Of a DNA stretch of 64,000 nt, positions 15,613 to 15,875 are shown one piece after another. This stretch comes from Alphaproteobacteria bacterium UBA1908. Its GTDB lineage: Bacteria; Pseudomonadota; Alphaproteobacteria; Caedimonadales; UBA1908. The notes under the pieces were generated by a model, which was given only the letters and a program-made list of their open reading frames with translations, had not been told where the DNA came from and ran no database searches. The translations under genes were made by a program, and so were the position numbers. The stretch is from positions 458 through 64,457 of the forward strand of contig DDGG01000030.1 in NCBI GenBank assembly GCA_002337525.1, given 5' to 3'. The stretch's first letter is position 1; each line of letters begins with the position of its first letter.

Positions 15613-15641
15613 TTGACATCCAAGATGGGCATTGTTAAATA
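15613..15641 (+). promoter_or_regulatory. Sigma70-like promoter with extended -10
   Basis: TTGACA (15613..15618), a 17-nt spacer, then TGt-TAAATA (15633..15641). Confidence 0.6.
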
Positions 15642-15647
15642 TAAAGC

Positions 15648-15875
15648 ATACAAAAAATGACTTAACAGATGATTGAGGTTTGAACGATGAGTTTTTATAA
15701 GATGCGATTAAGGGTGCTCTCTTAATCCCCCGGTTTAACGGGCCCCCGTTGTGCCCGTTAAAGCACGCCAGCGACTCTCTGCTGGCGTATACTTCCCTGT
15801 TAGACTTATGCCTCTCCTTCGGGAGGGGCAGCTTTTAGGGAATATGTTCTGATCTTTTAAAATGGAAAATAAACA
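15648..15875 (+). ncRNA. Structured 5' leader or candidate sRNA (four hairpins, 12-codon uORF)
   Basis: Hairpins at 15706..15727 (7 bp), 15734..15762 (9 bp perfect), 15765..15788 (8 bp) and 15810..15829 (8 bp, UUCG loop, followed by AGCUUUUA). The uORF MSFYKMRLRVLS (15687..15725) has GAGG upstream. Confidence 0.4.

Follow-up and report, generated by a model that had tools for sequence, protein, structure and literature searches.

What kind of element lies upstream of ORF192, a gene for a 192-aa protein (15876-16454, plus strand) in Alphaproteobacteria bacterium UBA1908? The gene is part of a 64,000-nt stretch of contig DDGG01000030.1 (assembly GCA_002337525.1), which we refer to as the window, and the region in question sits in the 550-nt gap between ORF192 and a LysR-family regulator gene (14417-15325, plus strand; Pfam HTH_1 and LysR_substrate) immediately upstream. 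An earlier note, made from the sequence alone, had proposed that a promoter in this gap drives a leader or small RNA (sRNA) with four hairpins and a 12-codon upstream open reading frame (uORF), and that the whole could be a leader-peptide attenuator, a riboswitch-like element, or an independent sRNA. Our analysis led us to a reading that we hold with moderate confidence: the region is the 5' leader of ORF192, and its 3' half is a cis-acting attenuator and anti-Shine-Dalgarno leader that acts as a default-off gate. This 3' half is probably a previously undescribed cis-regulatory RNA family that recurs before LuxI-like synthase genes of uncultured bacteria. The evidence for the leader element is computational and comes from few sequences (six loci).

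We folded the leader from 15648 to 15875 with RNAfold. The minimum free energy (MFE) was -76.3 kcal/mol, compared with -55.9 ± 4.1 kcal/mol for 200 dinucleotide shuffles, none of which was as good (z = -4.94). Thus, the folding is beyond chance. The MFE fold reproduced the four consecutive hairpins of the earlier note. Hairpin 1 was present at 15706-15727 (GAUUAAGGG/CUCUUAAUC), with 9 bp instead of the 7 that had been counted, and hairpin 2 was found at 15734-15762, with 10 bp (UUUAACGGGC/GCCCGUUAAA) and a 9-nt loop. Both are lineage-specific, and neither has a counterpart in other loci. Hairpin 3 (15765-15788, 9 bp) is followed by a pyrimidine-rich, anti-Shine-Dalgarno-like core motif, CUUCCCUGUUAG (15792-15803), and then by hairpin 4 (15802-15833), a terminator-like GC hairpin. 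The core of hairpin 4 at 15810-15829 has the 8 bp and UUCG tetraloop reported before (GCCUCUCC UUCG GGAGGGGC) and is extended by AG.CU/AGCU. A U-run with a purine sequence, UUUUAGGGAA (15833-15842), comes last; all of these features are on the plus strand. What the earlier note missed is the conserved CUUCCCUGUUAG between hairpins 3 and 4, together with its putative purine partner, UAGGGAA, after hairpin 4. The description as a leader or sRNA held to this extent: the region is a structured 5' leader of ORF192 that ends in a terminator-like hairpin, and for this structure both an attenuator and an sRNA of ~185-190 nt are viable.

Comparison required relatives of the locus. No close relative was found among the GTDB species genomes, and no orthologous intergenic region could be obtained from them. 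The neighboring OPT transporter had matches there that were ~35-41% identical and non-syntenic, with alphaproteobacterial, Holosporaceae, and Caedibacter metagenome-assembled genomes among the best, and ORF192 itself had none. An exhaustive HMMER search recovered ~21 homologues of ORF192 among 1.84 billion representative proteins, several of them full-length; a word-indexed protein search recovered almost none of the family. Searches of plasmid and phage collections with tblastn and blastn gave no match, and a degenerate coding pattern for the family found only already-known contigs in the metagenome collection and none among viral contigs. The aligned N-termini of the homologues all begin MFT.I.P, which fixes the ORF192 start at 15876. 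Three contigs (L001, L002, and L097) carry ORF192 itself, and their leaders, being 100% identical, give no comparative signal.

Before more distant homologues, we found that the 3' half of the leader is conserved in position and structure, with compensatory changes. This module is present in seven copies at six loci: the window (15792), L083 (5895), L093 (2532), L089 (178 and 375, as tandem units), L098 (2248), and L100 (11572, termed L100b). Its order is constant, with a hairpin of 7-11 bp (hairpin A, which is hairpin 3 in the window), 1-4 nt, the motif C(C/U)UCCCUGU(U/A)A, 0-18 nt, a GC hairpin of 8-13 bp, and a U-rich tail. The window copy (15765-15846) consists of hairpin 3, CUUCCCUGUUAG, which is a variant of the motif consensus, hairpin 4, and UUUUAGGGAA, and it has every feature by which the family is defined; L100 carries the motif variant UUUCCGUUAAA. 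At all six loci, the start codon follows at 36-66 nt from the computed end of the hairpin or at 24-60 nt from the end of the U-rich tail. For ORF192, it follows 34-46 nt after the hairpin, or 42 nt when counted from where the extended hairpin 4 ends. In each of the seven copies, the two flanking hairpins were more stable than their shuffles (Fisher p = 9e-9 for the upstream and 2e-6 for the downstream hairpin; p = 0.01 for hairpin 3 of the window), and their sequences are unrelated between loci. A descriptor built from the motif, both hairpins, and the U-run recovered six of the seven copies, missing L100b, and, among 184 occurrences of the motif in 80 unrelated control loci (1.3 Mb), accepted one.

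A covariance model made from the window copy alone, searched over 133 kb, found only L083 (E = 5e-6), L089 unit 1 (E = 0.076), and L098 (E = 0.13), and a second-round model with filters off added L100b (E = 0.007). In the resulting four-sequence alignment, which was fitted to the structure, 91% of pair cells held standard pairs, compared with 43 to 54% when the partners were slid by one to three columns. Both sides had changed in 17 of 28 pairs, compared with one to five when slid, and none of 500 shuffles reached the observed values. In helix 1, which is hairpin 3 in the window, seven of nine pairs were double-changed over four loci, and in helix 3, which is hairpin 4, seven of eight. No consensus structure came out of MAFFT and RNAalifold on the raw segments, as the hairpins cannot be aligned by sequence, and the covariance-model alignment was used instead. 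The riboswitch-like element that had been suggested does not fit these results: only the single-stranded motif of 9-12 nt is conserved in sequence, there is no conserved junction or pocket, and the helices vary freely in sequence and length.

We then asked what the motif pairs with. It is the complement of UAACAGGGAG, a purine-rich sequence of the Shine-Dalgarno type, and it has alternative partners in the tail, at the ribosome-binding site (RBS), and upstream. A degenerate purine copy occurs at most 20 nt after the GC hairpin in every copy of the module (UAGGGAA in the window, UUUUUAAGAGGG in L083, UCUUAACAGG in L093, and CGGAAAU in L100b), and its pairing with the motif extends the GC hairpin into a long composite stem. 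In the window, 15793-15799 (UUCCCUG) pairs with 15836-15842, within the proximal anti-motif, at -10.4 kcal/mol. This complementarity between motif and tail was better than in shuffles for five of seven copies (Fisher p = 2e-4 over all seven; p = 0.038 for the window). The RBS of the downstream gene in relatives reads UAAC(A/G)GGGAG, or UUAACAGGGAG in L093, and its duplex with the motif has an energy of -19.6 kcal/mol in L093, -14.6 in L098, -13.3 in L100b, and -10.0 in L083. In L100b, a U-A pair has been replaced by C-G through a compensatory change (motif CCGUUA, site UAACGG). Other genes of the related elements also have UAACAGGGAG-type RBSs, namely, a 436-aa gene in L083, a 467-aa gene in L100, and small open reading frames (ORFs). 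Upstream, a 5' box, AAAAAATGACTTAACAGATGA (15652-15672, plus strand), contains UUAACAG, which is complementary to a part of the core motif. The box is common to both tandem units of L089; aligned with these, it has the invariant run GAyTTAACAGAT, and within the window there is a single exact copy. The region of hairpin 2 was a further partner of the core motif, at -62 in the pairing scan, and its arms UUUAACGGGC/GCCCGUUAAA resemble the anti-motif and motif pair of the CCGUUAA variant in L100. By analogy with the tandem units of L089, hairpins 1 and 2 could represent a first repeat unit that has degenerated.

We propose the following mechanism. Transcription would start near 15648, and the RNA would form hairpin 3, the single-stranded pyrimidine motif CUUCCCUGUUAG, the GC-rich hairpin 4, and then UUUU. 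Part of the polymerases would stop at hairpin 4 and leave an RNA of ~190 nt with the motif exposed, and those that read through would make the ORF192 mRNA. The gap of 24-66 nt leaves no room for a second promoter, so ORF192 would be expressed only by read-through; the sole promoter-like site between hairpin 4 and ORF192 would start transcription inside ORF192. In the read-through RNA, the motif would pair with the UAGGGAA just after hairpin 4 or, in relatives, alternatively with the RBS of the downstream gene. One segment of 10-12 nt would then both stabilize the terminator stem and mask translation, and a signal would presumably decide between the on and off pairings. The net effect would be a default-off gate on the LuxI-like synthase and, in relatives, also over the F-type conjugation operon behind it. 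The T-run after the GC hairpin is on the strand of the gene only, and the homologous GC hairpins of L083, L098, and L089 unit 1 pass a terminator scan.

This arrangement resembles Rho-independent attenuators, including riboregulators in which a terminator is joined with RBS masking, in having a promoter and a long structured leader, in placing the start codon a few tens of nt after a GC hairpin and its U-run, in expression by read-through only, and in a short segment that has two or three possible pairings, with the tail of the terminator stem, with the RBS, and with an upstream Shine-Dalgarno-like site. It differs from them in that none of the known sensing parts was found (a codon run in a leader peptide, a T-box, a ligand pocket, or a protein-binding RAT), only 9-12 nt are conserved in the module, the window terminator is weak, and there is no match in Rfam 15. 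The module would be a new family within a known class of mechanism.

Several points weigh against this interpretation. The tail of hairpin 4, AGCUUUUAGGG, has only four U residues, and for this reason the window copy fails the terminator scan; canonical terminators are present in the same genome (for example, at 6027-6050). The duplex between the window motif and the ORF192 RBS has an energy of only -5.4 kcal/mol (p = 0.16). The two are not complementary, and therefore translational masking is unsupported for the window copy. No conserved antiterminator helix could be defined from the alternative pairings of the motif, and neither an alternative antiterminator fold nor a sensed signal was found. 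L093 and L089 unit 2 are non-significant with the covariance model because their spacing differs, and the pair counts given above come from four sequences in an alignment fitted to the structure. Folding was more stable on the plus than on the minus strand in five of seven copies, which is not decisive. The module is absent from about half of the homologous genes examined (L085 to L088, L092, the first paralogue in L100 [L100a], and L104), and only six loci are known to have it. Finally, the candidate promoter, the 3' end of the transcript, and termination itself are predictions from the sequence alone.

Could the region instead be mainly an independent, trans-acting sRNA of ~190 nt (15648 to ~15838) that is activated by the LysR regulator and represses mRNAs at their RBSs through anti-Shine-Dalgarno seeds, with read-through into ORF192 being secondary? 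We regard this as a serious rival, possible but doubtful. The candidate seeds are the loop of hairpin 3, ACUCUCU, and the single-stranded CUUCCCUGU, and the genes with UAACAGGGAG-type RBSs named above in L083 and L100, together with the small ORFs, are possible targets. The ACUCUC of the loop is a CU-rich first copy of the motif and aligns with CUCCCUGUUAUG / CUCUCUGUUAUG of L089. L089 has two complete tandem units, the first with a canonical terminator and the second with a TATAAT just before its 5' box. The AbcR sRNAs of Rhizobiales act by anti-Shine-Dalgarno pairing at the RBSs of mRNAs. AbcR1 uses two motifs, M1 and M2, and AbcR1 and AbcR2 are encoded in tandem just downstream of vtlR, the gene of the LysR-type regulator VtlR/LsrB (PMC7486931). 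The leader is likewise directly downstream of a LysR gene, has a tandem copy in a relative, and carries, before a terminator hairpin, a CU-rich motif in a hairpin loop and a second one that is single-stranded. However, it is not free-standing but joined to a protein gene at the 5' end of the latter, the motif that it carries, CCUCCCUGU, is neither of those of AbcR, and its distribution tracks the ORF192 family rather than ABC-transporter regulons. Every copy of the GC hairpin precedes a gene of the ORF192 family, on the strand of that gene and at a distance of 24-66 nt; a second promoter would not fit into the gap, and therefore the gene depends on read-through. The module was found nowhere else in the window, the window terminator is weak, and no convincing target site was found in the window. 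A covariance search with Rfam 15 gave no family, whether SorY, SorX, an AbcR/ar15-type sRNA, or a riboswitch, at its gathering threshold in the leader, in agreement with the earlier note, which had recognized none; window-wide, only two tRNAs reached it. In the leader, no sRNA family, AbcR/ar15 included, appeared at E <= 10, and the homologous leaders had no Rfam match either. The best sub-threshold match in 15300-16000 was SorY (RF02651), an sRNA of Rhodobacter, at 15766-15837, with 33.8 bits, far under the gathering threshold of 111. SorY likewise has two hairpins of which the second is terminator-like, as from hairpin 3 to hairpin 4. None of the homologous leaders matched it, and the likeness is a generic two-hairpin resemblance. 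The sRNA and attenuator explanations are compatible, as a terminated leader can also act in trans, and the terminated product of this one may double as an AbcR-like sRNA.

The remaining explanations turn on the uORF or on the DNA itself. The uORF, MSFYKMRLRVLS (15687-15725, plus strand), was found as described, with its ATG at 15687, a GAGG 8 nt upstream of this, and its TAA (15723-15725) in the 3' arm of hairpin 1, and translation of it might remodel the hairpins and so decide termination at hairpin 4. Small ORFs with such sites are found in most of the homologous leaders. In L093 and L089 unit 2, they stop within the motif or directly behind it, only a few nt short of the GC hairpin, and have an RBS region complementary to the motif. 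According to a published account, a ribosome that stops within a few bp of a terminator suppresses termination (PMC4824070). The peptides, however, are unrelated, with lengths of 11-35 aa and stops that lie anywhere between ~150 nt upstream of the motif and the far side of the GC hairpin. The window uORF is in frame with the motif, but it stops ~85 nt before hairpin 4 without a run of regulatory codons, and continuation to the motif is broken by in-frame TAA codons at 15723 and 15759. Short ATG ORFs are also expected by chance in AT-rich leaders. We consider such a leader-peptide attenuator quite unlikely, and a part for the uORF as the key sensor is not supported. More improbable still is that a small peptide gene, decayed in the window, has the motif as its 3' end (...PPC-stop) and that the hairpin behind it is the terminator of that gene. 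A uORF in the frame of the motif is begun in four of five copies examined, among them the window and L089 unit 1, and is intact in L093 (...SVKPPC-stop) and L089 unit 2 (...VMPPCD-stop), both ending at the motif; in the window, a SagB-like "peptide maturation dehydrogenase" gene is 2 kb upstream. In the other copies, the ORF is missing or broken, and the peptides share only the residues that the motif encodes. Moreover, the motif read as CCU-CCC-UGU has no synonymous variation across six copies, even though the flanks are saturated with changes, and its invariant third codon positions point to selection on the nucleotides rather than on the peptide. The few intact ORFs, their differing peptides and stops, and this invariance thus argue against both a peptide and a classical leader-peptide sensor. 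It is also very unlikely, in our view, that the module acts as DNA, as an origin of transfer (oriT) with its inverted repeat by the nick-like CCTCCCTG, or as palindromic operators (TTAACAGGG ... CCCTGTTAA) for the XRE-family (XRE) or LysR regulators. The module resembles relaxase recognition sites in that a conserved pyrimidine motif comes 1-4 nt after a variable inverted repeat, and in L083 and L093 it heads an F-type tra operon, a frequent position for oriT. The motif and anti-motif form a dyad, and in two of seven copies the minus strand folds about as stably as the plus strand. On the other hand, the copies in L089 are in tandem, the module is present without adjacent tra genes in the window, L098, and L100b, and it keeps a fixed orientation and a fixed distance relative to the start codon. 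Only one strand has the T-run, there are G-U pairs in the plus-strand stems, and the arms of the dyad, 25-35 bp apart, are too far from each other for a usual helix-turn-helix (HTH) operator. The compensatory change links a motif and an RBS that are 60-90 nt apart. Both the oriT and the operator are therefore disfavored, by the tandem arrangement, the occurrence at loci that lack adjacent tra genes, the constant orientation, and this long-range change. The interpretation in the earlier note is partly supported by these comparisons: the region is a leader that is an attenuator or sRNA, not driven by the uORF and not a riboswitch.

Two other candidates were tried and rejected. An RBS for a minus-strand ORF was discarded, as no conserved ORF is present there. 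The leader is also not a dispersed repeat or the end of a mobile element, a match to which the earlier note had named as refuting it: it is single-copy, is a copy of no window repeat, is unrelated to the repeats that flank the surrounding island (see below), and has no blastn match in the plasmid and phage collections.

Upstream of the fold, the promoter elements are at the positions claimed, with TTGACA at 15613-15618, a 17-nt spacer, TG at 15633-15634, and TAAATA at 15636-15641 (plus strand), and they make a candidate sigma-70 promoter from which we infer a transcript start near 15648. To call it near-consensus, or one of the best matches to sigma-70 in the window, was an overstatement. The -10 hexamer agrees with TATAAT at three of six positions, for a total of 9/12, and a consensus promoter scan did not list this site because of that -10 and its lack of the T at position 6. 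Sites of 10/12 and 11/12 are present elsewhere in the window, and ~36 sites of at least 9/12 are expected by chance per 20 kb. In favor of the candidate are the perfect -35, the extended -10 with its TG, the optimal 17-nt spacer, and a tract of almost only A and T directly 5' of the -35 hexamer (15572-15611, plus strand), which we take to be a possible UP element. The homologous leader of L098 has a promoter-like TTGACA-18-TATGTT. The LysR regulator encoded upstream may activate the leader promoter.

At the other end of the leader, the sequence ATGTTC occurs twice, at 15844-15849, directly after the anti-motif AGGGAA, where it reads ATG TTC TGA, and at 15876-15881, where it is the real start of ORF192. 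A 26-nt segment may have been inserted between an ancestral RBS and the ORF192 start codon.

What does the gate control? ORF192 has no match in Pfam or NCBIfam. An AlphaFold (AF2) model built with the alignment of homologues had a pLDDT of 88.9, and its best Foldseek matches in the PDB were FeeM, an N-acyl amino acid synthase, and then the acyl-homoserine lactone synthases EsaI, LasI, MesI, RpaI, BjaI, and TofI. The TM score with LasI was 0.60, with general GNAT acetyltransferases close behind. Weak matches to Pfam PF00765 (Autoind_synth), below the Pfam thresholds, were seen in 6 of 22 family members (best E = 3e-4). Together with the model, these matches suggest that ORF192 is a very divergent LuxI/FeeM-like synthase with a GNAT fold.

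The surroundings of the gene differ between loci. In L083 (cassette at 4806-12561) and L093 (1663-9167), an F-type tra operon (TraL, TraE, TraK, TraB, and TraC) begins with the ORF192 homologue, beside which lies a divergent HTH regulator gene. The XRE regulators of ~145 aa in L090, L093, L098, and L100 are orthologous (35-50% identity) and are divergently transcribed from the ORF192 homologues. In the window, ORF192 is a chromosomal solo gene, with a LysR gene in place of the XRE gene; a decayed XRE gene in 15326-15612 was rejected, as tblastn gave no match. In the Ti plasmids, a LuxI-type synthase gene, traI, is the first gene of the conjugative type IV secretion system (T4SS) operon traI-trb. 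L083 and L093 are alike in this order, in the regulator gene that adjoins, and in the LuxI/FeeM-like fold of the product. They differ in that the regulator is XRE (LysR in the window) and not of the LuxR type, the T4SS is F-type, and the synthase is below the Pfam thresholds. To our knowledge, no leader RNA of this kind precedes traI. The cassette of ORF192 homologue and XRE regulator could be a new quorum-sensing-like control of conjugation.

A broader reading, which we think rather unlikely in its entirety, makes the leader the post-transcriptional half of a quorum-sensing-like switch in uncultured, probably protist-associated bacteria, in which a divergent LuxI/FeeM synthase with an XRE (or LysR) regulator stands first in F-type conjugation operons. 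The terminated sRNA would repress the UAACAGGGAG-type RBSs of the synthase and tra genes, and the read-through form would neutralize its own seed through the copy after the terminator. If such a dual-output switch exists, it would provide threshold or bistable control of signal production and DNA transfer.

If the attenuator model is correct, a new family of leader RNA with a leaky terminator and an anti-Shine-Dalgarno segment controls a very divergent LuxI-like synthase and, in relatives, the conjugation machinery transcribed behind it. It would offer a handle on when the mobile elements of uncultured, endosymbiont-like bacteria signal and transfer, and it would add a compact, portable gate of terminator plus translation control to the catalogue of riboregulators. 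The immediate reach is modest, with six loci found and the organisms uncultured; a literature search found no description of the ORF192 gene family or of its leader.

Some homologues without the full module have other features upstream. L090 has a reduced, differently oriented version, which the covariance model matches on the minus strand at 5841-5795 (E = 0.024). There, at 5833-5937, a small ORF, MNKISTLFFLNACSALYYSGFSGYHCQNGTFCGE, lies behind the RBS TTTTACAGGGAGG in the leader of an ORF186 paralogue, and the dyad of motif and anti-motif is reduced and reversed. The P0003/P0004 branch of the family has another conserved region upstream, TTTGCGnnTTTTGCAT...TTCTATTGGATTTTTGAC, at L085 (980-1070), L086 (90-200), and L096, and the module is absent from these loci. 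L100 is plasmid-like (RepA_C, ParAB) and carries two paralogues of the ORF192 family. One metagenome assembly, GCA_001369555.1 (CENR01; contigs L094, L095, and L097), holds the ORF192 locus of the window together with the P0002 and P0007 loci, which may be paralogues in one genome or may come from co-occurring relatives. None of the dispersed repeats of the window was seen in the fetched parts of the other two CENR01 contigs.

These dispersed repeats also surround the ORF192 locus. Inverted copies at 12655-12897 and 16469-16811 (others are at 6982-7372 and 35897-36158), complementary over 148 nt at 94% and 80 nt at 89%, bracket a 4.1-kb block with the SagB-like dehydrogenase gene, the LysR gene, the leader, and ORF192. 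At 14001-15000, the GC content drops to 31%. The block could have been acquired as an island, or it could be a composite element. The SagB-family gene (12946-13980, minus strand), which resembles the "peptide maturation dehydrogenase" family, scores 160 bits with TIGR04511 (cut-off 240) and above the cut-off of TIGR03605, and no YcaO partner is in view. An 83-nt direct repeat, 76% identical (13990-14072 and 14259-14341), lies between this gene and the LysR gene, in their divergent intergenic region. Farther upstream, at 5354-7000, there are tandem paralogous genes with a period of ~820-880 nt, each with a canonical terminator (6027-6050 and 6909-6932).

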